A stretch of 64,000 nt of DNA from a virus (lineage: Duplodnaviria > Caudoviricetes): positions 1-64,000 of the IMG/VR virus record IMGVR_UViG_3300028833_000118. One strand, 5' to 3'. Position 1 is the stretch's first letter. Each line of letters begins with the position of its first letter. The notes beneath the pieces are model-generated. The model saw only the letters and a program-made list of their open reading frames with translations, was not told the DNA's origin and did no database searches. Positions 13,052-37,244 of this stretch are shown here, one piece after another. Both the position numbers and the translations under genes were made by a program.

Positions 13052-15877
13052 TCACGGCATCTTCATCGACTTTACCACCATGCGCCCATCAAAATGACCA
13101 CGACAATCATAATATGAATTGCAAGAATCATTGCGCTTCCCTATTTCCGTTTTCCCGACCTGACGAATAACAACATGGGTCTCATAACAAACATAATACT
13201 TATCTCCCCATCTGTTTTCCCTGATTCCTCGTTCTCTTATGGCCGGGGTAATATCTTTTTCCTCCCTGATATAACCACCACTAATCTCTTTGGAAGAAAC
13301 AGAAACAACCTCAAATTCTCCACAACTTAAATATTCTTGCTGTTTATATCTCGACAAAGCAGATATATCTAACGCATTCGCTCCGGGCTCCAATACATAA
13401 TGTATCTTGTCCCCGAACTTACTCGCAGATAGATCCTCTTCAACATCAAGGCTCGCCGTAAACGAAGTCGGGGCATCCATCTTTATTCTATCTCCGACTT
13501 TCGGCGGGACATACGGCTTTTGATCCCCACGTTTGAATATTCTCCTGTCACTCGTTACCCTATACAACTCCCGATCATACGGTTTGCTGTTATTGATTAT
13601 TCCGATTACATTTACCATTCCCTCTGCCATATTCGCTTCGCTGCTTTTGAGCCCTTGTCCCTTCCACAAATCACGAATTTCATAGAGGTTTCCATTGGCA
13701 TATTCTCCAATGGTCATTGCATCAACATCTTTAATTCCTTCTTTTACAACCTCTTCGGCAGCGGCTCTTTGTTCGGCATAACCACCTTCTGTATAAAGAA
13801 CAATACTGTCAACCACATTTTTGAATTCCGGATCTTTCTTTGCCTTTTTTACAATGCTTTTTCGATCCATCGTTCCAATATCTTTCGCCCACTCTTCACA
13901 TTTCTCTTTATCTGCGGGCTTTATATCAGTGACCATTCCTGCCTCATCCGAACTACCTACGAACCGAACCGGCGGATAATCATACATTTCCATTGCTGCC
14001 CCAACGTCATGGGCTACAAGTTTATCATCGAGTTTTCTCATCCCATGCTTGTTTGTGATGGCCCACTCATTATCCCCTGTTTTCTCAAATAATAACGTTC
14101 CCCTCACAACAAGAGCCCCAACAGGGAGACTTGAAACAAGCTCCTCGCATTCCTTCCTCGCCTCATTTTGCCTTTTCTCAGACTCTTTAAACGGTGTTGG
14201 GTCATAATCCTTCGCCTTATAATTGACTCCTCTTTGAAAGGCCTCTTCTTCCAATACCCTTCTTCTTATATCGTCGAGTTTCGTTTGTGCCTCTTTGATT
14301 TGGTCTCCACTGAGCACGGTTCTCTTGACTTCCACACCCTTCGCAAGCCTCTTTTTGGTGGCACCAACAGATTCCCCACCCGACATTTTGCTAATAACAT
14401 GTGGGTTCCCCTTATCAGGCTCCCCTTCTTCATTCAAATGGACTTTGTGCCCATTTTCCGTAGTTATCCAACGCCCCTCTTCGGTTTTCGCATCCAATCT
14501 TTTTTGTCTGCGTTCCCTAAAACCATCTACCCTTTTCTTCTTTTTATATGCTTCCCAAGCAGAATCAACATCCTCGACGGCTTCTGCATCCTTCGGCTTG
14601 AATCCTCCCCATTCTCCATCCCGAAACTTTATCTGCTCATCATCGCTCTCGAAATCCTCAAGATGTTCCTCTAACCACTCATCCCACGCGGCATCCATAT
14701 TAACCGCCATGCCGCCCGGATAGAGCTTTTCTTTTTCGCCAAGGTCACTATCCAACTCACCCTCAAAAAACGCGCTGTCGCCGTTCTGGGCTTTATGCAG
14801 GGCCGTCATCTGCCCTACGCTACGCTGAATACTATCTATGCACCTCTCAATAACCTTATCGGCTATCTCTTTATCCTTTTCACTCTTACTCGACGCAAAC
14901 AACTCAATCCTCTCTGCATCCTGAATTATTGCATCAAGCAGATCCTCATCTATACTGAATTCCGGTTCAATGATTTTTGACTCAGCATAATCCTCGAACG
15001 CCCATTTTACCGGATCGGCCCACTCCCAATCTCCAGACTTTTTTACATCCTCTTCATCTGTTCGACCGACCGGGGACAACTTCCTCGGAATCCAGATCTC
15101 GGCCTCTCCCACGGCTCTCATCGATCCATAGGTATCTATCGGCCTGACCTCTGCCTCTATGATGTTCCCATTCTCTCCGGCAAAGTGTTCCGCCATCTTT
15201 CTATCAAACGTATAGGCATCGAACACATCATCCTTGATATGCTTCTGCCCTTTTTCTCCCCGATATACCTTGATGGGCGTTACAAGAAACTTTTCAAACG
15301 AAACAGGCTTATCTATGTTATTCCGATAATTCTCATACGCCAAATTCAAACCCGCATTACGCATCTCCGGAGAACTCAGAATCGCATTTGTCAATTTAGG
15401 CTTATACGAACTATCCGCATTCCGAAACCACCCATCATAAAGGCTCTGCGTCACATACGGCGAATCATATATAACCTCATCCGCTTCATCTTGCGATATG
15501 GGATGAATGTCTTTTGTGGTATCCTCCATCCGGAATTTATACCACTCATCATCTATCGCCTGACCTCCGCCCTCATCATACAGATCCTGTAACTTATCTA
15601 CATTCTTCCTGATCCAATCATTTTTATCATCATCCGGCTCAAACTCATAATCCACTCGATTCGGTGACATTTCTTTTGAAATGCTCATCTTTTTGCTTTT
15701 CGGCAGATTACGCAACTTATCCGGGCCACTCTTTATATTTTTCTCGTCATCGACTAATACATGGGTTCCGCCAATCGTGATCCAATCTTCATCCATCCTT
15801 TTCTTCAATCTATCCGCCCGGCGCTTACGATATTCAATTACAGACAAATCAGCGATAGCTATCGCCCCCCTGACCAT
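13052..15877 (-). CDS. Leader-bearing multidomain protein with two putative ADP-ribosyltransferase domains
   Basis: 941 aa; VYRG...AYT...GEAE and LYRV...TSFT...QQEY are R-S/T-E patterns; Arg-rich leader at the N-terminus and repeated internally. Confidence 0.65.
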   Translation of the reverse strand: MVRGAIAIADLSVIEYRKRRADRLKKRMDEDWITIGGTHVLVDDEKNIKSGPDKLRNLPKSKKMSISKEMSPNRVDYEFEPDDDKNDWIRKNVDKLQDLYDEGGGQAIDDEWYKFRMEDTTKDIHPISQDEADEVIYDSPYVTQSLYDGWFRNADSSYKPKLTNAILSSPEMRNAGLNLAYENYRNNIDKPVSFEKFLVTPIKVYRGEKGQKHIKDDVFDAYTFDRKMAEHFAGENGNIIEAEVRPIDTYGSMRAVGEAEIWIPRKLSPVGRTDEEDVKKSGDWEWADPVKWAFEDYAESKIIEPEFSIDEDLLDAIIQDAERIELFASSKSEKDKEIADKVIERCIDSIQRSVGQMTALHKAQNGDSAFFEGELDSDLGEKEKLYPGGMAVNMDAAWDEWLEEHLEDFESDDEQIKFRDGEWGGFKPKDAEAVEDVDSAWEAYKKKKRVDGFRERRQKRLDAKTEEGRWITTENGHKVHLNEEGEPDKGNPHVISKMSGGESVGATKKRLAKGVEVKRTVLSGDQIKEAQTKLDDIRRRVLEEEAFQRGVNYKAKDYDPTPFKESEKRQNEARKECEELVSSLPVGALVVRGTLLFEKTGDNEWAITNKHGMRKLDDKLVAHDVGAAMEMYDYPPVRFVGSSDEAGMVTDIKPADKEKCEEWAKDIGTMDRKSIVKKAKKDPEFKNVVDSIVLYTEGGYAEQRAAAEEVVKEGIKDVDAMTIGEYANGNLYEIRDLWKGQGLKSSEANMAEGMVNVIGIINNSKPYDRELYRVTSDRRIFKRGDQKPYVPPKVGDRIKMDAPTSFTASLDVEEDLSASKFGDKIHYVLEPGANALDISALSRYKQQEYLSCGEFEVVSVSSKEISGGYIREEKDITPAIRERGIRENRWGDKYYVCYETHVVIRQVGKTEIGKRNDSCNSYYDCRGHFDGRMVVKSMKMP

Positions 15878-15878
15878 C

Positions 15879-16835
15879 TCAATTTGACCTCGCTCGCTGT
15901 TGCATCAACATCACTTCTGCCGTATCACCCTCGAACACGGGCTTCGCCGTACACCTACATCCATATGCTTGGCCCGGGTGTAGGTATCTCCCTGTATAAA
16001 CAATCCCCTTGCTCTTGGTTACATACCAATCGGCAGGGGGATTATTCCAACTGAAAATCTTGTTGTTCAACTCTCTATGGCACGGTCTGACCCTTGAATC
16101 ATGTCTTGCCGTCCACTTATATTTATCTACACCGAGACTTTTGTGTTCATACTCGGTCATATGACAATTTAATGTTCCCATCTGATCCGTGGCAATCTGC
16201 TTCGCATGGCTTCTGGTCATACCGACAACCTTTTCCAACCTACGATACACATTGATCCTCGGCTGATGCGTCGTATATCCCCATACGATAATCTCATGAA
16301 CCTTCGACAACGCATCCTGCGTCAACGAACTAATATAACTCACACTGTCCGCAACCCACTTGTTCATAAGATCTTCCATCGTCTCCATATAGAAAGGCTC
16401 GCTTATTTCTCCACCCATCGCATCATCCACAAGGCTTTTCCAATCCCTCACAGACGATCTCTGAGCAATCTTTCCAACCCTTCCCACTTTACGAATCAAC
16501 TTGGTAACATCGATATCCTTTAAGATATCCTCTTCGCACTCCGACAAGATCTCTCCGATCCCATCATCCATGTTTAAATCCGCATCTAATCGAACATTCT
16601 CATCCGACCATACATCATATATGGCCTTTACCCTCTCAATTGCAGGCCGTAATCTCTTCCCAATTACAACCGCAACCTCAAGAGCTACCCTTGCCAACTC
16701 TCTCTCCGCTGACATGGGGAATACCGGTTTTCTTCTCGGTATCTTTGCTCCCTCAGAACTCTCTACGGGAGAACTCTGCATCATTCTTGTTCGTATTTCC
16801 GGCACATTTACAATTGCCGCTACGCCCATCTGCAA
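15879..16835 (-). CDS. MuF / SPP1 gp7-like head morphogenesis protein, short form (likely start 16829)
   Basis: IATDQMGTLN, YKW...DSRVRPCH and HPGQAYGCRCTA motifs; no C-terminal toxin extension. Confidence 0.9.
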   Translation of the reverse strand: MQMGVAAIVNVPEIRTRMMQSSPVESSEGAKIPRRKPVFPMSAERELARVALEVAVVIGKRLRPAIERVKAIYDVWSDENVRLDADLNMDDGIGEILSECEEDILKDIDVTKLIRKVGRVGKIAQRSSVRDWKSLVDDAMGGEISEPFYMETMEDLMNKWVADSVSYISSLTQDALSKVHEIIVWGYTTHQPRINVYRRLEKVVGMTRSHAKQIATDQMGTLNCHMTEYEHKSLGVDKYKWTARHDSRVRPCHRELNNKIFSWNNPPADWYVTKSKGIVYTGRYLHPGQAYGCRCTAKPVFEGDTAEVMLMQQRARSN

Positions 16836-16910
16836 AACCTCCCAAAAGGCAAGGGGCGCTCTTTTCAGAACGCCCCCAGAAACCGTTTGTACTCATGGTA
16901 CATCGGCAAA

Positions 16911-17213
16911 TTATTTATATTTTAACGGGTCGAACTCCCAATCTCCGACTCTCGCTATCTGTCCCTCTTCGATTACACTCTGGTCGAAATCCTCCAGAAT
17001 ATCGAAATAATCTTTTCCGATCTCATCCACACCTTTTCCATTAATCAATGCGGACAAAACCTTGATTTTCTTCCCGAGCATCTTATCACTTTCCAGATCG
17101 AAATATTCACGAACCCCATCATCGATTTCGGCGGCTCTCGAATAAAGATCCTCGACCTTTTCTCTCATCTTCCAACGCTTTTCATACTTCTCCGCCAAAT
17201 CCATATCACTCAC
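16911..17213 (-). CDS. Small acidic partner (candidate immunity) protein
   Basis: 100 aa overlapping the stop of the zincin-bearing gene. Confidence 0.5.
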   Translation of the reverse strand: MSDMDLAEKYEKRWKMREKVEDLYSRAAEIDDGVREYFDLESDKMLGKKIKVLSALINGKGVDEIGKDYFDILEDFDQSVIEEGQIARVGDWEFDPLKYK

Positions 17214-18522
17214 CCCTCAATCTCTTCACTATCGCAACAATTTCTTCATTCAACTTTTGGGCAATCTCTGGCTTATCTCTATCGAACACTTCTGCCAACT
17301 TCGGGTTCGTTGCCTTCAACGCCACATAATCGGCAATCATCTCAATCGCCTTATTCCCTTTATCACTTCTGAAATACCCCTGCGAATGCCCGAATTTGAC
17401 GATTCCAGATGCCCTTAATTGCCCTCCACTCAATGAATCATACAACCCCTGCAAACTCGCCACACCATGCATCAAAGACTCTCTTCTAACAAGGTTCTCT
17501 TCTTCGACGGCCTTTCTCACCTTTTTTATCTCTTTCTCATATGCTCTTATGTCCGACCCAGACATTCCAGATCTAAGCATCCCCGAATAATCCGCCACTC
17601 CATCATCTCGCAACCATTCCGGCCTCTTTCCATACATCCTCTCAGCCGCCTTGAACGTCGCTTCAATTTTGTCCTTCTTCTCCTGATTCCTTAATTCATC
17701 ATACTTGTCATTATATTCTTTGAACAGATTTCCGGTCTCTTTGCTGAATGCCCCATTATCTGCATCTATCGCATTTAAAAGATCTTTGTTCTCTGTCGAA
17801 AAATGACCATACTTTTCATTCTCTCTCGCACACAGATCTATGTAATGAGTCCACTCATGAGCGAATGTTCTGATCGCCTGTTCCTTTTGATCTGGGTCTT
17901 TTATCGCAGAGAAATTTGGAATCGTAACCGTTGTCTCGATCATTCTTCCATCTCGATACATCTTTGTGCTAACAGATCCAGATGTAGGCTTCGTTGTCCT
18001 TCTGCAACTCAATCCGGGCGGAGTTTTTGAACCCGGCAACGTCGCAGCGCTCAAGAACTCTGTTATTTCCCCATCATCACAATGCTCATTGATGAACTTG
18101 GCGAACTCCATCGTATTCTTTTCATAGGTCTTTGAGGTCATTACACTCGGGAAATGACTTCCTTCAATCTTCGTCACAGGCTTCTTTGCCTTTGACGGTT
18201 TCCCGGCTTTCCCGGTTTTCTTTAACTCCTTATATACCTCTCCGGCAGAATACCCTTTTCCTTCAAGGGCTTTCCACGCATCCTTCGGTGTCCACTTCGG
18301 ATCGACATTGATCCCTTCTCTCAGACACAAACCAAAAGGGATTTTCGTGTTCCCATGACCACCAGATCCACCACCCACATTATTCTGATTCTCATCCTCT
18401 TCCGCATCCATACGGGCGATCCATCTCTGGTCGCGGCGTTCTCTATAATCAAAGACAGCCTTGGCATCTAACCTCGACTGCCTCCGCTTTTTATATTCTG
18501 AAACAACATCCAACGAAAACAC
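17206..18522 (-). CDS. Leader-bearing zincin-type metallopeptidase (likely TTG start 18513)
   Basis: AHEWTHYID (HExxH) with distal EMIAD; double Arg-rich leader; RBS GAGGTG before TTG. Confidence 0.6.
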   Translation of the reverse strand: MFSLDVVSEYKKRRQSRLDAKAVFDYRERRDQRWIARMDAEEDENQNNVGGGSGGHGNTKIPFGLCLREGINVDPKWTPKDAWKALEGKGYSAGEVYKELKKTGKAGKPSKAKKPVTKIEGSHFPSVMTSKTYEKNTMEFAKFINEHCDDGEITEFLSAATLPGSKTPPGLSCRRTTKPTSGSVSTKMYRDGRMIETTVTIPNFSAIKDPDQKEQAIRTFAHEWTHYIDLCARENEKYGHFSTENKDLLNAIDADNGAFSKETGNLFKEYNDKYDELRNQEKKDKIEATFKAAERMYGKRPEWLRDDGVADYSGMLRSGMSGSDIRAYEKEIKKVRKAVEEENLVRRESLMHGVASLQGLYDSLSGGQLRASGIVKFGHSQGYFRSDKGNKAIEMIADYVALKATNPKLAEVFDRDKPEIAQKLNEEIVAIVKRLRGE

Positions 18523-18537: not shown

Positions 18538-18708
18538 TCATTCAACGCCCTCATCTTCGACAATTTCAAAATTTCCCGGAAGATACAAATAATCTTCCCC
18601 CGTTTCATCAATCACACGCCAGAAACCATGCTCTTCTCCTATTTTTTCATATTCTTTCCCCTTGATGAACTCCAAGGGGTCGCTCTCACCAATATATCTT
18701 ACTTTCAT
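18538..18708 (-). CDS. Small candidate immunity protein (MKVRYIGES...IDETGEDYLY)
   Basis: 56 aa from ATG 18708 with GGAGGA RBS, overlapping the upstream gene; this type of protein is commonly found beside MuF toxin domains. Confidence 0.6.
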   Translation of the reverse strand: MKVRYIGESDPLEFIKGKEYEKIGEEHGFWRVIDETGEDYLYLPGNFEIVEDEGVE

Positions 18709-19348
18709 CCATGTCCTCCGCAAACTGCTTAATCTTCCATCTGGTTTGCCCGACCTCCGGGCTTTCAAACCAATGTAAATCGGCTTTTCTCTGCTTCCCA
18801 TCCGGTCCGACTACCATTCCAATACCTTTACAATGCTTCCAACTTCCACTTTTTCCACCCGACTGCTCTATCAATTTATCTTCTACTCTCAGTGGAGCCG
18901 ATGTTCCATTCCCCGCAAATACGGTTAAATGCTCTATCTCTCCACGACAGATCTTATACTTATTGCCATCCGGGTCACTGACTCTCACTTGCTTCGTCAC
19001 CCTCATCTTTTCCTCATCATGGTTAAAATGAGTGACTGGCTTCCCGACCTTGTCTCTCATCACCGCCCCGGCATTGCTATACTCTACCTTTACTTCGGGC
19101 ACCATCTTTCCTTTTCTGGTGCTCTTCGCCCCTCCCTTTGACTCGAATCGTCCGCTCTCATCCCTCGGATGGTCAGATTCCTCGAACTCATCCATCCGAT
19201 CTTCCATGCCGATAGACAACGATAGTCTCTGTAATTCGGCAAACAATTTGCGCCTATATGCACTAAAAGCGCCGTCGTCGGACAGCGCTTTCAAGGTCAG
19301 GCAAATACTTTTAATTTTATTCGCACAGCTTAAAATGCCGCCGTCCAA
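18686..19348 (-). CDS. HPR-motif protein with a MuF-toxin-like C-terminal domain
   Basis: DHPRDESGRF motif; C-terminal WKHCKG...ADLHWFE...VG...WKIK resembles a domain recurrent at MuF C-termini. Confidence 0.55.
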   Translation of the reverse strand: MDGGILSCANKIKSICLTLKALSDDGAFSAYRRKLFAELQRLSLSIGMEDRMDEFEESDHPRDESGRFESKGGAKSTRKGKMVPEVKVEYSNAGAVMRDKVGKPVTHFNHDEEKMRVTKQVRVSDPDGNKYKICRGEIEHLTVFAGNGTSAPLRVEDKLIEQSGGKSGSWKHCKGIGMVVGPDGKQRKADLHWFESPEVGQTRWKIKQFAEDMDESKIYW

Positions 19349-19360: not shown

Positions 19361-19780
19361 TTATTCGGTCAAAATTTCGACCGCCTTTTTATATTTCTCA
19401 AGACGCTCCAAATCCATATCATTTACCACAGGCAACCTTGTGAGATCCATGTTGTGCTCCAAATCGGCAAGCTTCACCTTCCGAGCCAACTCATTCCCGC
19501 GAATTCCCTTGATATACTCCAGATACGGAACGCCCCTCTCATGTGTAATCACACGAACAGCATCGGCAATCTCGTCACCGAAAAGATCCCGAATCTCATC
19601 AATCGTCGCCCCAGTGTCCTCCACAGTGTCGTGAAGCCACGCAACGACCTTCTCTTTCTCTCCCAGAACTTTCCCGGCAACAGCCCTCGGATGCTCGATA
19701 TACGGCACTCCCGCCTTGTCTACTTGACCCCGATGCTTCATCTCAGCGAATTTCTCCGCCATCATCACAATGTCATTCAC
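19361..19780 (-). CDS. HD-domain small alarmone hydrolase (Mesh1/SAH-like)
   Basis: HRGQVDKAGVPYIEHP, WLHDTVED and VKLAD motifs. Confidence 0.9.
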   Translation of the reverse strand: MNDIVMMAEKFAEMKHRGQVDKAGVPYIEHPRAVAGKVLGEKEKVVAWLHDTVEDTGATIDEIRDLFGDEIADAVRVITHERGVPYLEYIKGIRGNELARKVKLADLEHNMDLTRLPVVNDMDLERLEKYKKAVEILTE

Positions 19781-20195: not shown

Positions 20196-21404
20196 TTATT
20201 TCTTCTTTTTAAATGTCGGTAGATTCATGATTCCGGGCGGCTCGCTCATCTCATTCACATTATCCACCATCGTTTTCTCTAAACGGTCATACTCATCCTT
20301 CATCTCCGGATGCTCTTTGAGATCGATTGCCCTCTGCTTTTCAAAATGACGATGGTTTTTGTTCTTGACTTTGATAGTTTCCTCAGACTGGACTTGCACC
20401 TCAAACAACTCACCGCTAGGAGCTTTTACTTGTAGATGAACAGCCTTATAATTCCGGGGGCCTCCCTTGGGATCGGGGAGGAACTTGTTATCTCTTTCAG
20501 TAATCTCATACCCAGACTTTTTTAATTCATCTTCCAATCCGGTTATCTGATCTACCATCTTATCATGATCGCACTTGAAAGAAAACCTCACAACATCATC
20601 CATCATCCCCAACGCTTCTTCATCCGTGAGGTTTTTATCTGCATACTTTTTCTTGACCTTATCGATCTTTCTTGCGGTAGATCCTCCACCCTTGAACATG
20701 TTTTCAAGCCCCATCATACGAGAACCGAGCTTATTGCTGATCTCCACCATATCGGCACCGATCTTTTTTCCACCCTCTATTCTCTTATCATAAGCCGCTT
20801 GAACTTCCGGCCCTTTCCCAATGACTTTTTTATCCCACATTTGAGACAATCCGGGAATTGCCGCGACAACAGTTCCATCCGGATCTTTCTGATACACCAG
20901 ATCCTTACTTGTGAGGTTTTTCAACACTTCTTCCTGCTGTTTCGTCTTTGACGGCTGGTTTCCATCTCCGGCCTCATCAGCAAGACGATTAACCTCTTTC
21001 AAGGTATCCTCATCATATACCGCTCCACGCTTCGGCTTCGGATAATCCACTCCACCACTTGTTTTAAACGACTTGGTATAAGTGCTGCCCCTCACTTCTT
21101 CATTCTGCAAATTTCCATTCTTTACTTTCTTCGGCCCATTCTCTTCTTTCTTACCGCCATTCTTCTTTCCATTGAGTTTATTCCAAGCCTCAAACGCATC
21201 ATCCACAGACATTCCTTCTGTATCTACACCATTCGACTTTAAAGCTCCGAACACCCACCCGATTCCGGCATCCATTCTCTCTCTCAAACGTCCCTCACGA
21301 CGCTTTTTATACTCTTCCACACTATCGAATTGGGGAATAACCCCATTCTTCTTTTCAATTCTTTCCTTCCTACGGGCTTTATATCTTTTAACGGCGTTGT
21401 CCAT
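20196..21404 (-). CDS. Leader-bearing RelA/SpoT-type nucleotidyltransferase (small alarmone synthetase-like)
   Basis: FKGGGSTARK, DDVVRF, NYKAVH and EVQV motifs in canonical order; double Arg-rich leader. Confidence 0.8.
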   Translation of the reverse strand: MDNAVKRYKARRKERIEKKNGVIPQFDSVEEYKKRREGRLRERMDAGIGWVFGALKSNGVDTEGMSVDDAFEAWNKLNGKKNGGKKEENGPKKVKNGNLQNEEVRGSTYTKSFKTSGGVDYPKPKRGAVYDEDTLKEVNRLADEAGDGNQPSKTKQQEEVLKNLTSKDLVYQKDPDGTVVAAIPGLSQMWDKKVIGKGPEVQAAYDKRIEGGKKIGADMVEISNKLGSRMMGLENMFKGGGSTARKIDKVKKKYADKNLTDEEALGMMDDVVRFSFKCDHDKMVDQITGLEDELKKSGYEITERDNKFLPDPKGGPRNYKAVHLQVKAPSGELFEVQVQSEETIKVKNKNHRHFEKQRAIDLKEHPEMKDEYDRLEKTMVDNVNEMSEPPGIMNLPTFKKKK

Positions 21405-23521
21405 TAAGACTCACCATCCCAAGAATTTTTGTTTTCCGAAATACCAGACTCGGCCTTTTTCTTCAAAATATCCAGACCATCTTTAAACGGCTTAAACAAC
21501 CGGTCATCCATCACATACAGATCTTGTAGATCTCTCCACACAGGCAAGGCCATCTCTTTTCCATCGCAATCCGGCTCTCCCTTGAAATCTGTGCAGAGGA
21601 AAATATGACTTCTCAGATGTTCCGCATTATCCCCTCCAACTTTTGTTTCATCTCCGGTCTCCAACTTGCTACCGATACGAACCAGATCTTTGGGGATAAT
21701 ATTGAATTCCTCAAACATCTCTCTAATTGCCGCTTCCTCGGGGCTCTCTCCCTCTTCTATGTGACCTCCCGGCCCTCCGATCAATCCAACACCTTTGCCC
21801 TTCAACCTTGTTCCGGTAAGGACTTTTCCATCTTTAACAACAATAACGCCGACTCCACCGAGCCGACGCTTTACATCCTCTTCATCCTCTTCGACTTCTT
21901 TTTTTACCTCAGATCCCTCAGAAGCCGTCTCTTTGCCATTTTCGGGCTTTTCCCCTCCACCTATATTCGGCATTTGAGGATTTCCCTGAGCCCCTTCTGG
22001 TGCTCCTCCTGGCATTCCTCCGGGTGCTCCGCCTCCAGGCGCTCCACCCATCATACCCATCATCGCTGCCATCGGATCTTGCTGTTTATTCGCCGGATCA
22101 TTCTCTTCGAGCTCTTCATCGGTATAATCATCCAACATCGTCTCAATATCGAACTCACCATCATCCGCGAGTTTCTTTCTTATCTCAGACGGATCTACTG
22201 CCTGCATCTGCACATAGATATTCGCTGTATTGGCATTCGTCTGGGCAACCTGAGCTTTCTGCAGATCCAACGCAACCTTTTCCTGCTCAGACATAGACCA
22301 CAACGAATTGAACTCTACATCCAACGGAGGAACTTCATCGATCTCATGATTATGCAACCCCGCCTTTGACAGCACAGCCAAAACATACCGCAGATTACTC
22401 TTTACCATCCTTTTCTGGATTCTCTCTACATAATTGTAGTAATTCTCCAGATCCGAACTACCCGTTGCGTTCATTCCCGCAGGAGAACGACCGAAAAGAA
22501 TTGTCTGCGGAATATTCGTAATCGCAGACAGATAATTGCACGTTGTATTGATTACATCCGAAACCCCGGCAAAAGAGAATGATTTAAAATCATAATCCTC
22601 ACCATCGGCATCCAGAACGATACTGTTTAGCAGACCTCTCGCCAGATCTATAATCTGCAACCGCTTGAGAACATTCGCCTCTCCCTCGTCGGTTGCTAAC
22701 TCCAACGCCAAATTCTGCATTTTATAAATCGCCTGAATAGACCGATCCAACATCTTCGGTGCCATTCCATGAGCAACTTCAACATCTTTTACCGCTCTGT
22801 GAATTCTCAGATATTCCGGGATGCCCCACAACTGATAAATCGAATTAACCGATCTCTCCGGCAATCTCCCATTCTGGAATATCAGGCATCTCGACTCATG
22901 AACCGTAAACGTCCCATACTTGCTCGTGACCATATATGTCTCAGGCATACCGAACCGACTTCCACGAACATTGTACGGGTCTCGGCTCTCATACTTGTAC
23001 ATACTCGAATAATCCGGCACAAGCAACGACCGATCATATATCTGAATCTCATCCAGAGACTTAATGTGTTTCCAATCCAACGGCTCTTCCAGGCCACGAC
23101 CATCATCAATAAGCATTACGCCAATTGATCCGCCAAACAATCTCGCCCACTTGATCCCGAGCATGAACTTCTCTTCCCAATCGAGCTCATCCATGCACTT
23201 ATTATAGAAATCCTTGGTCTTTCCATCCGCCAGATCTTTTATTTCAAAGCCGTGCTTAATAGCCTCTTCCGCGGGGAGATCTATGATCCTCGAAAACAGA
23301 CCATTTCCCTCATAGAAAAGCTCAAGCTCATCATCCATCACCGGATCTTCGGCTTCATAATGATAATGTTCAGATGAATCTCTCTGCGTACCATAATTGG
23401 TCAACAGATTTACAAAACCATCTTCACGATACGGACGCACAGAATGGCCCGTCTGCTTCTCCAATACCTTGCCGCTCTTATCCGCGAACTCGGAGAAATC
23501 TATTACCGCTTTATCAGCCAA
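21404..23521 (-). CDS. Portal protein (DUF1073 type) fused to a C-terminal Nudix hydrolase
   Basis: Y..NGLFSRIIDLPAEEA, RLFGGS and PQTILFGRSPAGMNATGSSD portal motifs; Nudix box GHIEEGESPEEAAIREMFEEFNI. Confidence 0.9.
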   Translation of the reverse strand: MADKAVIDFSEFADKSGKVLEKQTGHSVRPYREDGFVNLLTNYGTQRDSSEHYHYEAEDPVMDDELELFYEGNGLFSRIIDLPAEEAIKHGFEIKDLADGKTKDFYNKCMDELDWEEKFMLGIKWARLFGGSIGVMLIDDGRGLEEPLDWKHIKSLDEIQIYDRSLLVPDYSSMYKYESRDPYNVRGSRFGMPETYMVTSKYGTFTVHESRCLIFQNGRLPERSVNSIYQLWGIPEYLRIHRAVKDVEVAHGMAPKMLDRSIQAIYKMQNLALELATDEGEANVLKRLQIIDLARGLLNSIVLDADGEDYDFKSFSFAGVSDVINTTCNYLSAITNIPQTILFGRSPAGMNATGSSDLENYYNYVERIQKRMVKSNLRYVLAVLSKAGLHNHEIDEVPPLDVEFNSLWSMSEQEKVALDLQKAQVAQTNANTANIYVQMQAVDPSEIRKKLADDGEFDIETMLDDYTDEELEENDPANKQQDPMAAMMGMMGGAPGGGAPGGMPGGAPEGAQGNPQMPNIGGGEKPENGKETASEGSEVKKEVEEDEEDVKRRLGGVGVIVVKDGKVLTGTRLKGKGVGLIGGPGGHIEEGESPEEAAIREMFEEFNIIPKDLVRIGSKLETGDETKVGGDNAEHLRSHIFLCTDFKGEPDCDGKEMALPVWRDLQDLYVMDDRLFKPFKDGLDILKKKAESGISENKNSWDGES

Positions 23522-27397: not shown

Positions 27398-28798
27398 TTA
27401 CAACAGACTCTTTACATTGAACATCGGCTCTGCGAGCTCATTGAACGCATCCGAACTTCCATCCACCATATCATCATGTTTCCCATCCGGGAAGAACTCT
27501 AACTGCGACAAATACATATCATTCCAATCCGCCGCCAACACTTCCACATTCCCATTCTGCCATTGAGTCGCAAACGGCATTGCTCTCAAGATCTTACTTC
27601 CCGTTACTCTCTCACTCTTCACCGCATATCCCGCCAACTTCTTCACATACGCATCCGAGGCAATTTTTCCTGCCGCGCCCGGGTCAATCGGGATGTGTAT
27701 CTTGATCTTTCTTCCATACTTTGTCCTATCTGCCAAGGCCGTATTTAACAAGATCTTCTCCACATCTCCCGCCGCCACTCGAACATTTATCACATTCAAG
27801 ACGATGAAATTTCCATTCTTCCTTCTACCCATCAATATACCAGCCGTGAAGTCTGGATCGTTATTTTCTGTTTTCTCCGTCGCCGCAAAGTCCCACGCCC
27901 GACATACCGAAACTATATCATCCGGCTCTTTCTCTACAATCCGAATCTGTGACCTCTTGAAATACAAGCCTCCTGCGGGTTTGATCTTCCAGTTACCCTT
28001 CAATAGACGCTCTCTCTCTACCTCAGGCAACGCTTTCAGATTTCCAAGATACTGCGGGTTTACCTTCAACAAAGCCTTATTGTCATAGACTGACGATGCA
28101 ATAAACGTCACCGACCTTGGCTCACTCAATTCCTCTTCTGTCTTGAGATTGAACCTATCTATGAGCTCTTTTTTGCTATCCGCCCAATATACGGTATTCT
28201 CTCTTCGGATCATCCACCTTACCACTCCTGATCTCTCCGGAATGGCATATCCAGTATCTTGATCGATCCACCATGAAATAAAATTAGCTACCCACGAATC
28301 CGGGTCTGGGTTGCATGATGCCAACACATACGGCCTGACACCACACATACTCCGGTTTCGGGATAGCATATAAAAGAAAACATATTCCGAAAAATGCGTT
28401 AACTCATCGAATTCAATACCACATATCTGAGCGCCCTGATAATTATGAGCCTCTTCATCTCTTTCAATATGCTTGAATGATACCCTCGAAAGAATGCTTC
28501 CATCTGTATCATGAAACTCCCAAGCCGCATCGCCCTTCTTGACCTCTGCCCCATCTATGCGAGAATACATATCCCGGGCATTGTCCCATAGCGCACCCTC
28601 GGTAAATATCTGGTTTGAATTCTTCCGGAATATTACGCAACCGAATCCCCTTACATCTATGAACCTCAATGGATACGCGAGCTCCGCCCACGTTTTCCCT
28701 CCACCCGCAGCCCCACCATAGATAATAACATCCGCCGCGCTTCTAAGACATTTCTCCTGCGGACCTTTTTGGGGCTTTATGATAATGGGCTCATCCAT
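27398..28798 (-). CDS. terL: Terminase large subunit
   Basis: Walker A GGAAGGGKT, Walker B IEFDELTHF, nuclease motif HDDMVDG. Confidence 0.95.
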   Translation of the reverse strand: MDEPIIIKPQKGPQEKCLRSAADVIIYGGAAGGGKTWAELAYPLRFIDVRGFGCVIFRKNSNQIFTEGALWDNARDMYSRIDGAEVKKGDAAWEFHDTDGSILSRVSFKHIERDEEAHNYQGAQICGIEFDELTHFSEYVFFYMLSRNRSMCGVRPYVLASCNPDPDSWVANFISWWIDQDTGYAIPERSGVVRWMIRRENTVYWADSKKELIDRFNLKTEEELSEPRSVTFIASSVYDNKALLKVNPQYLGNLKALPEVERERLLKGNWKIKPAGGLYFKRSQIRIVEKEPDDIVSVCRAWDFAATEKTENNDPDFTAGILMGRRKNGNFIVLNVINVRVAAGDVEKILLNTALADRTKYGRKIKIHIPIDPGAAGKIASDAYVKKLAGYAVKSERVTGSKILRAMPFATQWQNGNVEVLAADWNDMYLSQLEFFPDGKHDDMVDGSSDAFNELAEPMFNVKSLL

Positions 28799-30095: not shown

Positions 30096-30747
30096 AATGC
30101 TCCCTCAGCTTCTCCAACGCCACATTACCCTTGAGAACTCTGCCGATTCCCCTTCTCTGCATATTGGCCTTTACTACTCCGTCTTTTCTTGTACTCAGAT
30201 TCTTTACTTCCTTGATATCGAACAAAGACTCGGCCTGCAGCCAATCCACCTCATTGTCGAAATACAACACCAAATAATTGTGATCTTCCCCCAACACTTC
30301 GGTGAAAGGCACATCCCCCTTCTCTTCTTCCTTTTCCTTGGCTTTCTCATCCATGGCAAGGTCGAACCCGAACATCTCCATGTCGATATTGATAATGGCA
30401 TTCAATTCCCCATTCAACAATTCAAGATCCCAATTGCTTAATTCAGCCGTCTTGTTGTGGGCTAATGCATACGCCCTTCTCTGCTCTTCATTCAAATGAT
30501 CCAACCGAATAACGGGTACTTTCTCCATTCCAAGCTGTTTCGCCGCAAGAAGTCTGCCATGCCCTTCGACAATGACATTCTCGTCTCCCCATATTCCTAT
30601 CGGATCATCAAAACCGAATTCCTTTATTGAATTCGCTATCGCCAGAACATCCCACTCATGGTGCTCTCTGGCATTGTCCTCATACGCCATGATTTCATCT
30701 ACCGGCAAATACTCTATTTTGAGCTCCGCCTCTTTAACGACCTCCAT
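30079..30747 (-). CDS. ParB N-terminal domain protein
   Basis: NAREH, SIKEFGFDDPI and EGHGRLLAA motifs; ATG at 30747 with AGGAGG RBS. Confidence 0.85.
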   Translation of the reverse strand: MEVVKEAELKIEYLPVDEIMAYEDNAREHHEWDVLAIANSIKEFGFDDPIGIWGDENVIVEGHGRLLAAKQLGMEKVPVIRLDHLNEEQRRAYALAHNKTAELSNWDLELLNGELNAIINIDMEMFGFDLAMDEKAKEKEEEKGDVPFTEVLGEDHNYLVLYFDNEVDWLQAESLFDIKEVKNLSTRKDGVVKANMQRRGIGRVLKGNVALEKLREHYEHQH

Positions 30748-30948
30748 GATTGACCTCCTAAAATAATAAATCCCCGCTGTTTCCGGCACAGACGGGGGAA
30801 GCCTTTATACACCCCAAACTATCAGTAAAGGGCTATTTTCTCCACGAATTACACTTTTCCGATAATTACTGGCGAAAATAATACACACCGGCAAATTCTC
30901 CCGAAATTACCGATGTGTACTACCTTTTCGGTGACTCCACCGATATGG

Positions 30949-31409: not shown

Positions 31410-31943
31410 TTATTCCTTCACCTTTTTGGCACCATTAGCGATAAACTTTTCAACATTCGCTCGGCTCATTTCTACCGGCCTACTTGATCCGCCCATCCAT
31501 TGCAACGCCATTTTCCCACGGCTTCGCACTACTTTAAATTTTGATCCGCCACTTCCGAATCCTCCTCCGGCAGAATATACGTCTCCCTCATTGGCATTCT
31601 TCATAAATCTATCTATCGTTTCTTTTCTTTTCTTTTTTTCTTCTGCCGTAGCATATTTCACTCCGCCTACTCGAAATACCACCGGAATCTTCTCATATAC
31701 ATCATCCCCACCAGAAATAACCCGCGCTCCATTCTTAGGCTCGGCCTCTTTTTCCGGCAAATCTTCTACCTTAATAGCCCTGTTCTTATTTGACAACCCG
31801 CGCAATTTTTCAGGCCCCTTGGTGATGTTCTTATCATCATCCACCATTACATGAGTTCCCTTTATGGTAATCCAATCATCATCCATGCGCTTTTTCAGCC
31901 TTGAATCTCTTCGCTCTTTATATTTCTTTACCGACTCATCCAT
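31410..31943 (-). CDS. Leader-bearing protein, cargo unknown
   Basis: N-terminus nearly identical to that of 13052-15877 (KKRMD.DWITI.GTHV.VDD.KNI..GP.KLR). Confidence 0.7.
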   Translation of the reverse strand: MDESVKKYKERRDSRLKKRMDDDWITIKGTHVMVDDDKNITKGPEKLRGLSNKNRAIKVEDLPEKEAEPKNGARVISGGDDVYEKIPVVFRVGGVKYATAEEKKKRKETIDRFMKNANEGDVYSAGGGFGSGGSKFKVVRSRGKMALQWMGGSSRPVEMSRANVEKFIANGAKKVKE

Positions 31944-31946
31944 TGA

Positions 31947-32543
31947 TTATCCCCCTATAATCAATTCACTATACGGCAACGTCTCGATCCATTCACAAAA
32001 CGCTCTCCACTCCGGGAGCCTATGCGTCTTTCTCTGCTTATAGATCGTTTTCAACTGTCTATAATTGGTTGTCATCCCCGCTGTCAACTTGAACCCGGCT
32101 GGATTGCTATACAAGATCTCCAGATACTTCTTTTTCTTTTCCTCCGGCTGGAATATATCGATCATCGAATTATACTCATTGATCTTCTCTTTCATGATAT
32201 CTATGATCCTCTGATCTACATACTCATTATAAGATTTATCCAGATCGAACTTTGTAATCCGATGCATGGTTGACTCGGAACTGATAATATCCGCAAAATG
32301 ATATCGTTCCATCTCTACCCACGCCTTATTTGTAAACGTCAAATCGAACTGGACCACAATTCCCAAAAGGAAATTATCATGCCCTTCACCGATCCGACTT
32401 TTTGCCAACACCTTGATCCCATCCGTCAGCTCATTGTTGACAGACTCCGAATCAACCGACATAGGAAATTTCGCTCTCCGAAAACTGTCCTCCAGACCAT
32501 ACACCTGTGCATGGCTTACGCAAGAACAACCTTTGACCTCCAT
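31947..32543 (-). CDS. ThyX-like (flavin-dependent thymidylate synthase fold) protein, divergent
   Basis: EMERYHFADIISSESTMHR and TTNYRQL...R..HRLPEW resemble degenerate ThyX motifs. Confidence 0.45.
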   Translation of the reverse strand: MEVKGCSCVSHAQVYGLEDSFRRAKFPMSVDSESVNNELTDGIKVLAKSRIGEGHDNFLLGIVVQFDLTFTNKAWVEMERYHFADIISSESTMHRITKFDLDKSYNEYVDQRIIDIMKEKINEYNSMIDIFQPEEKKKKYLEILYSNPAGFKLTAGMTTNYRQLKTIYKQRKTHRLPEWRAFCEWIETLPYSELIIGG

Positions 32544-32561
32544 ATAATCCTCCCGATAAAT

Positions 32562-32675: not shown

Positions 32676-33581
32676 TCATACTTCCTCCACCTCTAACATC
32701 ACATACTTGCTATTTTTGAACGCTGCCTTATTGATCTTTAACTGCTGATTTATCATATTCATCATTGACCTTTCCCTATCGGTCAGATCTTTCTTCTCAC
32801 TATACTCTTTAACCAACTCATTGGCAAGGTCAAACTTTGAATACACCTTTTTCCCTACAACTCTCCACTTACTCGTGCTTGGCGCTAACACCTCCGCCTC
32901 ATAATCCCTAAATCGGCTCAAATGCTGCACACCCACCGCACTCTTATTATTCTTACACACCAACATCACACTTGACATTGATGGCCTATCCACTTCTGCA
33001 AAATCTCTCGCCGCCGTTTTATCGCTGCTCCAACTTGATACAGACTTCATCTCTACCTCATCGCCATCCTCAAGATCGGCGAATCGATCCACATCTCCCT
33101 TTCCATTCCAATCCGTAAAACTCATTCCACGATAGATTTCCCCATCATACGTTCCCATTCTGGCGAGTCCATCATCTATAATCTTCTCTTGATCTTTCTT
33201 CTTCCCCTCTGTGAACTCTCTATAATCCCCACCGAAATATCCCATCAACGTCTGATGCAATTTTTTTGCTTCTTTTTGCGAATACCCAGTCTCATCCATG
33301 ATGCTATCCAACGCCTTTTTATTAAACGCCGTCAGATCCTTATCCGGCACTCTCCCCCCCTTTGCTTCAACCTGTCCTCTTCTTTCTCCATTCTTCTTAC
33401 CATTCGCCGGGATATATTTATCTATTACATAGAAGTCCCCCTTCACCGGGCCTCCCACCGCTTTCCCATCCTTCACCGGGACATGAACCCCATTTTTCAA
33501 CGTGATCCAATCCAACTTATCAAATCTTTCTTCTAACCTCTTCTTCCGCCTCTTTTGATATCTCTTTACAGCATCATCCAC
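32676..33581 (-). CDS. Leader-bearing ADP-ribosyltransferase (R-S-E, VIP2/exotoxin-like)
   Basis: IYRGM, VSSWSS and EAEVL motifs; GTG start at 33581 gives MDDAVKRYQKRR. Confidence 0.8.
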   Translation of the reverse strand: MDDAVKRYQKRRKKRLEERFDKLDWITLKNGVHVPVKDGKAVGGPVKGDFYVIDKYIPANGKKNGERRGQVEAKGGRVPDKDLTAFNKKALDSIMDETGYSQKEAKKLHQTLMGYFGGDYREFTEGKKKDQEKIIDDGLARMGTYDGEIYRGMSFTDWNGKGDVDRFADLEDGDEVEMKSVSSWSSDKTAARDFAEVDRPSMSSVMLVCKNNKSAVGVQHLSRFRDYEAEVLAPSTSKWRVVGKKVYSKFDLANELVKEYSEKKDLTDRERSMMNMINQQLKINKAAFKNSKYVMLEVEEV

Positions 33582-33930: not shown

Positions 33931-33934
33931 CTTC

Positions 33935-34635: not shown

Positions 34636-34651
34636 TAATGACCTCCTATAA

Positions 34652-34678
34652 TTAAAAATGCGGGATTTTCACCCGCGC
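34652..34678 (-). terminator. Intrinsic terminator downstream of the tRNA pair
   Basis: GCGGG-TGAAAAT-CCCGC then ATTTTT. Confidence 0.6.
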
Positions 34679-35045
34679 TGCTTGTTTCAGCCCACGGCTC
34701 ACGCTCCATGAGTCATCAACCTTGTGGCAAGGAGTAAAACAAAAGAAGAGAACCATCAATATTTGATTTTCTTGCCTATCTTGATCTCATATAGCCATCC
34801 CATTTTCACTCGGCACCTATCGCAATAATCTCTTTCATTCGACCATATCAGATAAACCCGATATCCCGCCTCACGATACTCAGATAAGCAAGAAGGGCAA
34901 AGTGTGCGAATATCTTTTCCACCCCGCACTCCTCATTCCCCCTTACGAAACGTCGCTGTGCGGTTAAGCACAGCGACATTCGTCATCTATAAGGGAAACC
35001 ACAAGAAACTTTCAATCCGAAAGCACTTATCAGGAAATCCCTTTT

Positions 35046-35119
35046 TGGAGCGCCAAAGGGGAATCGAACCCCTACACTCAGATTGGAAATCTGACAGACT
35101 ACCATTATCCTACTGGCGC
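35046..35119 (-). tRNA. tRNA-Gly(TCC), CCA encoded
   Basis: Acceptor GCGCCAG/TTGGCGC, anticodon stem TCAGA/TCTGA, TTCGA T-loop; D-stem weak. Confidence 0.9.
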
Positions 35120-35260
35120 ATATCGTACGGGGCCGATGTACTCATGTTCGGTCTGTGCGAAAGGTCATTCCTCTCTGGGGCACAGACACTTTCCACCGGC
35201 TTTTCATTCTCTGTTGGTGTTGCCCGCGCAGCCAACATCATCCGGGAGCGACCCGGCCTC

Positions 35261-35348
35261 TGGCGCTTGCGGTAGGATTTGAACCCACAAGGACTTCCAT
35301 CCTCTCTCGGTTTTCAAGACCGGGCAGTTACCATTACTGTACGCAAGC
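35261..35348 (-). tRNA. tRNA-Ser(TGA), CCA encoded
   Basis: Acceptor GCTTGCG/CGCAAGC, loop CTTGAAA, long variable arm, G73. Confidence 0.9.
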
Positions 35349-35474
35349 ATTAAAATCGGCCGCCTCTCCACTCATGCCGATTGTCTGTGTCGTACACAGC
35401 AGATTGGCGGTCGCGAGAACATAGACCAGATCCCGACACCCGGTCTATTCAAGAACACATCCGCGAACGGCCTA

Positions 35475-36092
35475 CTATGCTCTTTCGTTTTTTATTTTTA
35501 CTTCACCAAAACATATCCCATTTTTCAAGATCTGCTCCCCGATATCATTTCCGCCTTCTGCACCATCCGGTGTTCCCACCAAATACAAAGTAGGCATATC
35601 TCCATAAGCATATTGCCCGACAAGATTTATCGCTTTTTCCAAATCTTCTTTTTTTAAGCCGCCATTCCCATCTTTAATCCCTACCGTTGATACTCCATCT
35701 AATTCTCCCGCATCCCACATTCCTTTTCTTTTACTGAACTTGGCTTCTTCTCCCCACTCTCTCGGATCATCTTGATACCATTGATGCGAATTCTTAAACA
35801 CATGCCCCGCCTTTTTCCCCGGCTTATCTGCTCGCAACCCGAAACTCCACCATTGTCCTGATTTTTCATAATAATCATTTATCAGATCTGCCACATCTTG
35901 CAGATCATCAAATGTTTTTGAAAATTTACCTACAGGCCCACTTTCAAAATCAAAATTACCGTCACCGGAATTATCAACCCCTCCAGATGAAATGAACCTC
36001 CCATTTTCCCCTCTTGGATGCTTGCTCGAATTCCACTCTTTTTCATCCATCCTTCTTTTTCGCCTTTTTCTGTATTTTTCTACCGCATCCAT
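35475..36092 (-). CDS. Leader-bearing HPR-motif protein, cargo unassigned
   Basis: MDAVEKYRKRRKRRMDE then KHPRGENGRF. Confidence 0.7.
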   Translation of the reverse strand: MDAVEKYRKRRKRRMDEKEWNSSKHPRGENGRFISSGGVDNSGDGNFDFESGPVGKFSKTFDDLQDVADLINDYYEKSGQWWSFGLRADKPGKKAGHVFKNSHQWYQDDPREWGEEAKFSKRKGMWDAGELDGVSTVGIKDGNGGLKKEDLEKAINLVGQYAYGDMPTLYLVGTPDGAEGGNDIGEQILKNGICFGEVKIKNERA

Positions 36093-36258
36093 ACATCTAC
36101 CCCCTCAATGTACTTTCATCTCGGTTTTCCTTTTGGCAGACCGAAAACTGCCATCCCGTTTCTCCCAATTATTCTACCATACCAAGAAATAAGAGGGAAC
36201 TATAACACTTCAATCCCCCACGCATAACGCAAGGTTTCAAGGCAAGGCAAACATCAAA

Positions 36259-36489
36259 TCAATACAACAAACTCAGATTTTCGGCCGCTGTACTGATGCA
36301 ATATCCGAACGCAATTTTCTCATTCGGATTCTTTTTGAACCTCTCGACTCCCTCTTTATAGAACTTCTCCATGATCTCCACGCTGTCATCTTCTTCAAGA
36401 TACTTTTCAAGATCCTCCGGGTCATCCGCTTTTCTCTCATCGACTAACTCTTTCAAACATCTCTTCTTAAACTCTTTGAACGAAATCAC
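36259..36489 (-). CDS. Small partner protein
   Basis: 76 aa overlapping the stop of the upstream leader-bearing gene. Confidence 0.55.
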   Translation of the reverse strand: MISFKEFKKRCLKELVDERKADDPEDLEKYLEEDDSVEIMEKFYKEGVERFKKNPNEKIAFGYCISTAAENLSLLY

Positions 36490-37244
36490 AACTTCCCATC
36501 CCTTTCTTTGTATGCCTCATCATATTCTTTTGGCTCCGCCATTTTCATAAACTCTTCAATCGGCGTTGTGTTGACTTTACCGGTATATTTGAAAAATACT
36601 ATTGGCTCTCTCTTTACCGCAAGTTGTTCGTCTCCCGGCTTTTCCTTCATGCCATTCCACTGTTCTCTCGTAAACCCATTCGCTTCAAGCCAATCATCAT
36701 TCGCATATTCATCATCCCACTTCGTCCAACTCACAGGCTCGAATCCGCACTTTTGATAGAACCCATATATTCCGGCATAAGCATCCAACTTATTTCCACC
36801 GGCTTTGACGGCATCTGCAAGTATATCTCTTCCCCTATCTCCCTTTTCAGCATTCGCGGCAACACTCACGATATCCGTCCCATGCAACGCAAAGGTTGAT
36901 CCATTCTCATTCATATACTTGTCCATTCCCTTGTAATCATCGGCAGAATAATCATCACTCACACGCCATCTTTTGTCCGGCTTCATCCCACTTCTCAATT
37001 TGGAAAATCCACCTTTGAAATCGACCGCAGAGCTCGTTTTCCCAAATTTTGGCGTTGATCCTCTCGGCTTCGGTTCGGCCTTTACCGCTCCACCGCCATT
37101 ACCGGGCGCGAACTTTCCATCTTCATCTCTAGGATGCTTTTTTTCTTCCCAATCAACGTCTAACCGAAAACCTCGTTTCTTTAACCGCCCATCTCTCCGA
37201 ATTTTATATTTTTTGATTGCTCTTTTATCCACCATAAGTGTCAC
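36486..37244 (-). CDS. Leader-bearing HPR-motif protein with a GNAT-like C-terminal domain (likely start 37235)
   Basis: KHPRDEDGKF; G.DIL..AV..GGNKLD...GFYQKCGF pattern. Confidence 0.6.
   Translation of the reverse strand: MTLMVDKRAIKKYKIRRDGRLKKRGFRLDVDWEEKKHPRDEDGKFAPGNGGGAVKAEPKPRGSTPKFGKTSSAVDFKGGFSKLRSGMKPDKRWRVSDDYSADDYKGMDKYMNENGSTFALHGTDIVSVAANAEKGDRGRDILADAVKAGGNKLDAYAGIYGFYQKCGFEPVSWTKWDDEYANDDWLEANGFTREQWNGMKEKPGDEQLAVKREPIVFFKYTGKVNTTPIEEFMKMAEPKEYDEAYKERDGKL

Follow-up and report, generated by a model that had tools for sequence, protein, structure and literature searches.

Why should eight genes for otherwise unrelated proteins, placed in and around the head genes of one phage, begin with nearly the same arginine-rich peptide? 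This question is raised by the first 64 kb of the virus record IMGVR_UViG_3300028833_000118 (Duplodnaviria; Caudoviricetes), a single contig of 89,387 bp; this 64-kb stretch is called the window hereafter, and all its genes are on the minus strand. The record is from an uncultured gut or rumen phage that is related to the Faecalibacterium phage FP_Brigit. An earlier examination of the letters of the window (the sequence-only reading) had noted an Arg-rich leader common to nine genes and had proposed that it loads toxin-like proteins into the prohead for ejection into the next host. We have followed up this proposal by computational analysis.

The leader, called the tag in this paper, exists as a module: selection acts on it at the protein level, it occurs only in the head-gene block and mostly at N-termini, and it has been recombined with different cargoes. 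Concerning its role, we give an about even chance to the following reading of these analyses: the eight genes would be free-standing effector cassettes of a Brigit-like lineage of Clostridia phages, and the helix formed by the tag would be a non-covalent capsid-loading tag, possibly also a cleavage site, for effectors injected into the host.

Occurrence and conservation of the tag

The core motif was written as the regular expression [YF][KRQ].[RK]R.{2}R[LIMW], and the window and the complete record of 89,387 bp were scanned in all six frames. The 11 matches in the whole record are all on the minus strand, in frame, and belong to eight real open reading frames (ORFs); they span 14.5-37.2 kb, and the rest of the record has none. 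The proteins concerned have a high content of K, R, E, and D. An artefact of composition, which the sequence-only reading had itself named as a possible weakness of its proposal, therefore has to be considered, as does a repeated DNA element. Both explanations are refuted. Shuffling the residues of the long ORFs gave 0.06 matches on average and at most 2 over 2000 shuffles, as against the 11 observed, and shuffling restricted to the eight tagged proteins gave 0.004 on average. The copies have 48% of their residues in common, yet just 33% of the codons at identical residues are identical, which shows that the tag is conserved as protein and not as a DNA repeat. Furthermore, the motif is conserved with fixed spacing in hundreds of protein clusters (see below).

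Shine-Dalgarno-like sequences (GAGG or GGGG) lie 6-10 nt ahead of the starts at 37235, 36092, 33581, 31943, 27339, 21404, 18513, and 15877, which supports the gene starts listed in the sequence-only reading. With these starts, seven of the eight proteins begin with M-D-x-[AS]-[VI]-x-x-Y-[KR]-x-R-R-x-x-R-[LIM], and the tag begins at residues 2-5 in seven of the eight. Two genes have tandem copies, and a second copy is present at residue 453 of the 941-aa protein. The ninth gene of the earlier list (19348) has turned out to be different from the eight that hold genuine copies: it has no Arg helix, and only D-R-M-D and an HPRDxxGRF junction are found there. Since residues 28-68, in the N-terminal part of its product, align with the NUDIX end and the junction of the FP_Brigit portal, this gene looks like a remnant of a portal-NUDIX-cargo fusion.

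Anatomy of the tag and its adaptors

In the AlphaFold2 model of the 177-aa protein (31943), which is of moderate confidence, a helix is predicted at residues 2-21, strands at 24-42, and disorder at 48-80, followed by a domain. The model of the zincin protein (18513), also of moderate confidence, has a single helix (residues 3-35) across the tandem copies. The order in the models is a helix, a small hairpin, 30-100 disordered residues, and the cargo domain. A second motif, here called the adaptor, invariably follows R-(M/L/F)-D and some acidic residues; it is D-W-I-T-x-x-G-x-H-V (four cases), HPRDxxGxF (three cases), or a GGHGNTxPFGLC or G-W-V-F-G mini-domain (three cases). The W-I-T, HPRD, and GGHGNT motifs are wider-spread junctions of giant polyvalent-type proteins, often without the Arg helix. 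A fourth adaptor type, G-G-P-G-S-G-N-(W/F)-G-H-x-G-R-P-G, was found in the relative L009 (11874-14249) and in the protein P0050 and is absent from the window; in some relatives it comes after R-Q-R-M-D or R-A-R-L-D.

For the tag and for the W-I-T, HPRD, and GGHGNT junctions, we found no description in Pfam, in the papers on polyvalent proteins and MuF toxins, or by full-text literature searches, and literature searches on DUF2213/DUF2184 cleavage sites and on virion-packaging signals gave none of the tag. This agrees with the sequence-only reading, in which the leader was not recognized as a named family.

The net charge of the tag is +1 to +9, with 5-10 Lys/Arg per 19 residues. R19 and D21 are each kept in at least 90% of 90 tagged proteins, and a hydrophobic stripe (V, Y, L, M) with invariant spacing is conserved along the tag. 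The charge, a composition resembling the generally known arginine-rich nucleic-acid-binding motifs, and the long disordered linker behind the tag would suit an Arg helix that acts during or after ejection, by binding phage DNA or RNA, by serving as a threading or unfolding handle for tail passage, or by localizing the effectors in the new host. We regard such a role as quite improbable: the hydrophobic stripe and the invariant spacing speak for binding to a particular protein, enzymes that are unrelated and differ in their targets would hardly require one cellular address, and, given the established order of assembly, a DNA-binding tag alone cannot place a protein in the procapsid before DNA packaging.

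Distribution in related genomes and databases

Ten related contigs from IMG/VR, ENA, and Logan have 3-11 copies each, located on the coding strand near ORF starts. When a hidden Markov model (HMM) of 42 copies was searched against four whole related virus records (30-159 kb), 6-11 copies were found in each, and all matches with E <= 1e-4 fell within a single block of about 20 kb, in which the genes for TerL, portal, MuF, scaffold, and major capsid protein are also located. A fifth whole relative, G005, gave no tag match with the HMM. The sequence-only reading had placed the cargo genes among the head genes and had suggested an HMM search as a check; the copies are confined to the head-gene block in every whole record searched.

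A profile of the tag plus W-I-T was searched against 1.84 billion representative proteins, and 561 clusters were obtained at E <= 1e-3 (127 at E <= 1e-10). Most of the full-length matches, and about 90 of the best 150 profile matches, have the module at residues 2-55 of proteins of 60-700 aa; some others have a second internal copy. Giant proteins of 1.4-2.5 thousand amino acids (kaa) with 3-7 W-I-T junctions and no Arg helix were also found; four giant W-I-T proteins had no Pfam match. Among 90 tagged proteins, nine match toxin or peptidase families of Pfam (ADPrib_exo_Tox 6, Gln_amidase 2, and ATLF 1), and two further single low-scoring matches to unrelated families look like chance. The diversity of cargo pointed out by the sequence-only reading is evident, since 99 cargo regions formed 28 BLAST clusters. 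No tag-bearing prophage was found in a scan of 185,579 species genomes, and two short loci were obtained by a scan of JGI metagenomes and two loci by a degenerate DNA pattern in IMG/VR.

Exchange of cargo and fused forms

Close relatives carry different proteins behind the same tag. The tag and hairpin of the 31943 type are followed by different cargo in L002 and L006, the tandem tag and adaptor of the 18513 type by a non-zincin cargo in L004, and those of the 21404 type by a Zeta_toxin/AAA_33 kinase in L020 and by another domain without assigned family in L002. The synthetase cargo follows an HPRD adaptor in L008; in L009 it follows a GPGSGNxGHxGR junction that has no Arg helix. In L002, a tag-only ORF of 51 aa (4264-4419) is homologous to residues 1-28 of the 37235 gene product and ends after R-G-F-R-L, the cargo having apparently been lost at the tag boundary. 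The synthetase, hydrolase, and zincin genes form a block whose place varies: in L001, L005, and L006 it precedes the terminase, and in the window and L004 it comes after the portal. The 941-aa tagged gene starts 2 nt past the MuF stop, and the same is found in L004, L012, L020, and L021. With unrelated cargo behind the tag, swaps among close relatives, and a tandem-duplicated form that is kept in orthologues, the leader is the portable, tandem-duplicable module that had been proposed.

Fused forms are found in relatives without Arg helices. G005/L009 has a portal 62% identical to that of the window and the same terminase. The L009 portal-NUDIX protein runs via a W-I-T junction into a zincin cargo (1390 aa), and an L009 protein of >1472 aa chains an ADP-ribosyltransferase (ART) and other modules via W-I-T junctions. 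The FP_Brigit portal-NUDIX protein runs via K-D-R-M-D ... HPRDENGQF into a C-terminal domain. The covalent fusion of cargo to the portal in L009 and FP_Brigit fits the idea that free-standing cassettes need another way in.

Capsid loading or processing

Each cassette consists, in this order, of an Arg-rich amphipathic helix of about 20 residues (with an M-D-x-A-V-x-x-Y start and an R-(M/L/F)-D end plus acidic residues), an adaptor, a disordered linker, and a variable enzyme. If the tag is for capsid loading, the helix would serve as a non-covalent handle by which a component inside the head takes up the stand-alone cargo while the procapsid is being assembled; candidate receptors are the scaffold/protease, the capsid interior, the portal, and MuF. 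The tag would replace the covalent portal or MuF fusion used by sister phages, and the enzymes would be carried inside the capsid and reach the next host together with the DNA. In our analysis, a loading handle appears to be the most economical function for the tag, and toxin-type cargo with conserved small downstream ORFs or an HD hydrolase fits injected effectors.

Two extensions are put forward with less confidence. One is that the PF09979 head protease, or else the zincin of the tagged set, may cleave R-(M/L/F)-D, which would free the cargo and separate the two-cassette proteins; we hold this to be possible but somewhat doubtful. The PF09979 protein, the putative protease/scaffold, has R-L-D-S at residues 8-11, K-R-M-D-S near residue 392, and a tract of about 100 aa that is acidic. 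R-(L/M/F)-D-S is present at residues 8-11 in all five of its homologues with N-terminus read, and H-F-D-S is invariant in three capsid proteins. The other extension, which is tentative, is that the Arg helix and the adaptors may be a general transferable address code read by one conserved internal head component of Brigit-like Clostridia phages, so that any protein behind the tag would be loaded and injected.

A segment of the scaffold resembles the first half of the tag. It is located after the protease domain (residues 207-219; window 12320-12360, minus strand) and reads K-A-I-D-E-Y-K-A-R-K-A-E-R. Tag-like segments are at the same place in six homologues, with tag HMM scores of 2.5-13.6 bits, the best being A-V-E-A-F-K-K-R-R-A-E-R of FP_Brigit (13.6 bits). 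This could be mimicry by the scaffold or chance.

Several observations weigh against capsid loading by the tag. The K-R-M-D-S past the acidic tract of the scaffold is kept in only two of six homologues, and R-x-D, which is at the end of a predicted helix, could be purely structural. Four of the eight tagged genes are upstream of ParB/terS and not between the head genes proper. No record and no cultured phage with the tag module was found in the GenBank phage collection of 50,697 records. Pairing of the tag with the acidic tract of the scaffold was considered and dropped: FP_Brigit lacks both, but G005 has the tract without tags. A census of the pooled match set favors loading, the Arg helix being present ahead of 106 of 124 N-terminal W-I-T motifs as compared with 22 of 112 internal ones, but it is biased by the fact that the search profile itself contained the helix. 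Lastly, the internal and tandem copies are conserved, and one address per protein needs neither, which points to a processing or linker role.

Such a role forms an explanation of its own. The helix and R-x-D would be a processing site or linker between modules, derived from concatenated polyvalent proteins, that the zincin or the head protease recognizes; the adaptors (W-I-T, HPRD, and GGHGNT) or something else would take care of loading, and the N-terminal helix would be a leftover of gene splitting. The conserved internal copies coincide exactly with boundaries between cassettes (at residue 453 of the 15877 protein, in P0013-P0024, and at residues 463 and 952 in L021), successive tandem copies overlap, the L-D-A that ends one being part of the D-A-x-A-V that starts the next, and E-R-M-D-E-E is ahead of W-I-T inside the giant L009 protein without the full helix. 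Zincin-mediated processing of polyvalent proteins has also been predicted (Iyer et al., 2017; PMC5512222), and the tagged zincin is a conserved member of the present set. We nevertheless consider this explanation unlikely. Cleavage needs few residues and not an invariant basic helix of 20 residues, an N-terminal leftover would not remain so conserved over 561 clusters, and in the census above 90 of the 112 internal W-I-T junctions are without the helix, whereas most N-terminal ones have it.

Tagged genes and their cargo

The coordinates of the tagged genes and of the other features are listed in Table 1. More than one module is present only in the 15877 protein (two cassettes) and perhaps in the 27339 protein; each of the remaining six has a single cargo. 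Among the cargo labels given by the sequence-only reading, two are supported. The product of the 33581 gene is 72% identical to the protein P0104, which passes the cut-off of the Pfam family ADPrib_exo_Tox (25.9 bits against 23.4), and the cargo of the 21404 gene matches a RelA/SpoT-type small alarmone synthetase (PDB 8vx3, E 1.2e-4). The zincin label of the 18513 gene comes from a conserved HExxH and weak matches to lethal-factor-like folds (Z about 5, VIA-align); a Foldseek search with the model of this protein gave no match. For the labels GNAT-like, DUF3626-like, and MuF-toxin-type, no support was obtained in Pfam, PDB sequence, and Atlas searches. Pfam searches with the nine proteins gave no match at E <= 0.01 and noise alone up to E = 10, and no PolyVal or LPD model of Pfam was matched by the tagged proteins; PDB sequence searches with the 33611, 15877, 18522, and 27339 proteins gave no match, and scores in the Atlas feature search with the 37244 cargo were below 0.9. 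From motifs alone, the 15877 protein has two ART-like modules of R-S-E type. The 1077-aa protein (24106-27339) has about five repeats of about 100 aa at residues ~230-780, each of which ends in a short helix-hairpin-like motif such as A-R-D-Y-L-S-A-K-G-M-N-P-D-D, with a weak match to Pfam Ish1.

ORFs of 66-117 aa sit after six of the eight tagged genes and are mutually unrelated. The gene with the synthetase cargo (20196-21404) is followed by a 105-aa ORF and then by an HD_4 phosphohydrolase gene, and the pair is kept in L001, L004, L005, L006, and L021. Because HD_4 accompanies the synthetase cargo in these five relatives, it is likely to be an antidote or partner of this cargo, and the pair resembles a pair of toxic synthetase and hydrolase antidote. 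The small ORFs, the HD hydrolase beside the synthetase, and the generally known processing of T4 Alt in the head could also be taken to mean that the tag, as an inhibitory propeptide or as a site where immunity proteins dock, keeps the enzymes inactive in the producing cell and is unrelated to packaging. This is very unlikely, for one peptide could not inhibit the active sites of unrelated folds, the small ORFs are not related to each other, and 30-100 disordered residues separate the tag from the cargo.

Table 1. Positions in the window of the tagged genes, the motif copies, and the head-block genes.
Feature	Position	Strand	Evidence or content
Leader gene 1	36486..37235	-	Arg helix 37164-37220, R-L-D, HPRDxxGKF junction, cargo without assigned family
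Leader gene 2	35475..36092	-	Arg helix 36030-36086 ending R-R-M-D, HPRGxxGRF junction, cargo without assigned family
Leader gene 3	32676..33581	-	Arg helix 33516-33572 ending R-F-D, W-I-T hairpin, ADP-ribosyltransferase cargo
Leader gene 4	31410..31943	-	Arg helix 31878-31934 ending R-M-D, W-I-T hairpin, disordered linker, small alpha/beta cargo
Leader gene 5, 1077 aa	24106..27339	-	Arg helix 27274-27330, F-R-M-D at residue 55, GGHGNTxPFGLC adaptor, repeats, C-terminal cargo without family
Leader gene 6	20196..21404	-	Tandem Arg helices 21339-21395 and 21267-21323, G-W-V-F-G adaptor, small-alarmone-synthetase-like cargo
Leader gene 7	17206..18513	-	Tandem Arg helices 18451-18507 and 18403-18459, GGHGNTxPFGLC adaptor, HExxH zincin-like cargo
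Leader gene 8, 941 aa, directly after MuF	13052..15877	-	Arg helix 15788-15844 and W-I-T
Leader gene 8, internal Arg helix and W-I-T	14477-14533 (residue 453)	-	Regular expression
Ninth gene	18686..19348	-	No Arg helix; D-R-M-D and HPRDxxGRF junction only
Y/F codons of the 11 motif copies	37208, 36074, 33560, 31922, 27318, 21383, 21311, 18495, 18447, 15832, 14521	-	Regular expression
Large terminase (Terminase_6N/6C)	27398..28798	-	Domain matches
Portal, Phage_portal_3 family, C-terminal NUDIX fusion	21404..23521	-	Domain matches
HD_4 phosphohydrolase	19361..19780	-	Domain match; near synthetase cargo in five relatives
Short MuF head-morphogenesis protein, 318 aa, without toxin domain	15879..16835	-	PF04233 at residues 196-297
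PF09979 head-maturation protease/scaffold	11442..12959	-	PHROGs phrog_530
Cement protein (PF22758) and PF09950 major capsid protein	9856..11424	-	Domain matches

Head-gene block and neighboring genes

The head block contains a small terminase candidate, TerL, the portal, a short MuF, the PF09979 protein, a cement protein, and the PF09950 capsid protein. MuF is toxin-less, as the sequence-only reading had stated; it is a short protein with PF04233 in its C-terminal part (residues 196-297 of 318). The host is probably a Clostridia bacterium of gut or rumen, because the closest cultured phage is FP_Brigit, whose capsid protein is 61% identical and whose gene order is the same.

In the portal, the NUDIX domain comes after a Gly/Pro/Met-rich and acidic linker, an arrangement that is kept in L002, L004, L009, L020, and FP_Brigit. 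The large terminase of L009 (3463-5895) owes its length of 810 aa to an intein-like insertion that follows the Walker A region immediately and has LAGLIDADG-type motifs. In the window, immediately upstream of the terminase genes, a ParB-N nuclease-like protein and a weak TET-associated-glycosyltransferase-like protein are encoded (29310-30789, minus strand); this pair is kept in L002 and may reflect DNA modification. A ThyX-like protein (phrog_6721; window 31947-32543, minus strand) lies between two tagged genes and is kept in L001 and L002, and its motif N-Y-R-Q-L-K-T-I-Y-K-Q-R is a false match of the regular expression in L001. In the otherwise tightly packed array, the second tagged gene is separated from a zinc-ribbon ORF by 840 bp (34636-35474) in which the minus strand has no ORF of >=60 aa.

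Significance

The finding would be of interest mainly because injected effectors would become recognizable from sequence. If the tag loads capsids, the proteins injected along with the DNA by a large group of Clostridia phages of gut and rumen can be listed from sequence only. Most of the about 560 tagged clusters are without known family, and they would constitute a catalogue of candidate anti-defense or host-takeover enzymes. Should the address code also hold, the whole repertoire of injected effectors could be read in this way, amounting to hundreds of enzyme families, most of them unknown. Capsid loading by the tag would also show how polyvalent effectors, or those fused to portal or MuF, can be split into independently exchangeable genes with delivery retained, and a short peptide for packaging foreign proteins in phage heads would be available outside the T4 system.

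Comparison with known systems

In phage T4, the internal proteins IPI-III and Alt have a capsid-targeting sequence (CTS) that is removed by the prohead protease gp21 at the motif L/I-x-E. The tag is similar, by analogy only, in being a short N-terminal peptide on otherwise unrelated proteins in a phage that has a prohead protease, and in having a conserved end motif with an acidic last residue (R-(M/L/F)-D here). The proposed logic of loading, perhaps cutting, and injecting is also the same. However, the two have no sequence similarity, and the tag is twice as long, strongly basic, and helical. Furthermore, the protease here is of PF09979/phrog_530 and not of the gp21 family, and the tag also occurs internally and in tandem, always with a second adaptor motif.

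MuF polymorphic toxins (Jamet et al., 2017; PMC5576092) resemble the present set in having variable toxin domains at the head module and small downstream ORFs, and the 941-aa tagged gene is directly after MuF. The difference is that MuF and toxin are separate polypeptides: the tagged proteins lack a MuF domain, carry their own tag, and are encoded at several positions in the module.

The head itself is of the type of the Pseudomonas phages Pa193 and E217, with the same families (PF09979 scaffold gp24, PF22758 cement, and PF09950 capsid). On the inner side of the 5-fold vertex of Pa193, the PF09979 protein remains attached by a helix-turn-helix, and helices that have not been assigned, about 16 residues long, are seen beneath the hexons (PMC11456595). 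These densities show that the interior of this capsid type binds short helices, which fits capsid loading by the tag. In contrast to the phage of the window, no tagged cargo set has been reported for Pa193, and a connection of its densities with such a tag is a lead only.

Polyvalent proteins are virion cargo (Iyer, Burroughs, Anand, de Souza, and Aravind, 2017; PMC5512222), and gp47 of phi24B has been detected in virions, both of which agree with the proposed loading; solo forms near structural genes were noted in the same paper, in the text of which the words "leader" and "linker" do not occur. As in that system, ART, RelA/SpoT-type, and zincin cargo is encoded here among late or virion genes, and relatives have concatenated modules (1.4-2.5 kaa, 3-7 W-I-T junctions) or portal fusions (L009 and FP_Brigit). 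In the present phage, on the other hand, most modules are separate genes, each with its own Arg-rich tag, and the tag and the W-I-T, HPRD, and GGHGNT junctions match no LPD or PolyVal model of Pfam. In the capsid-loading reading, the tagged set would be a split form of polyvalent proteins, that is, a CTS-like tagging of polyvalent-type effectors.

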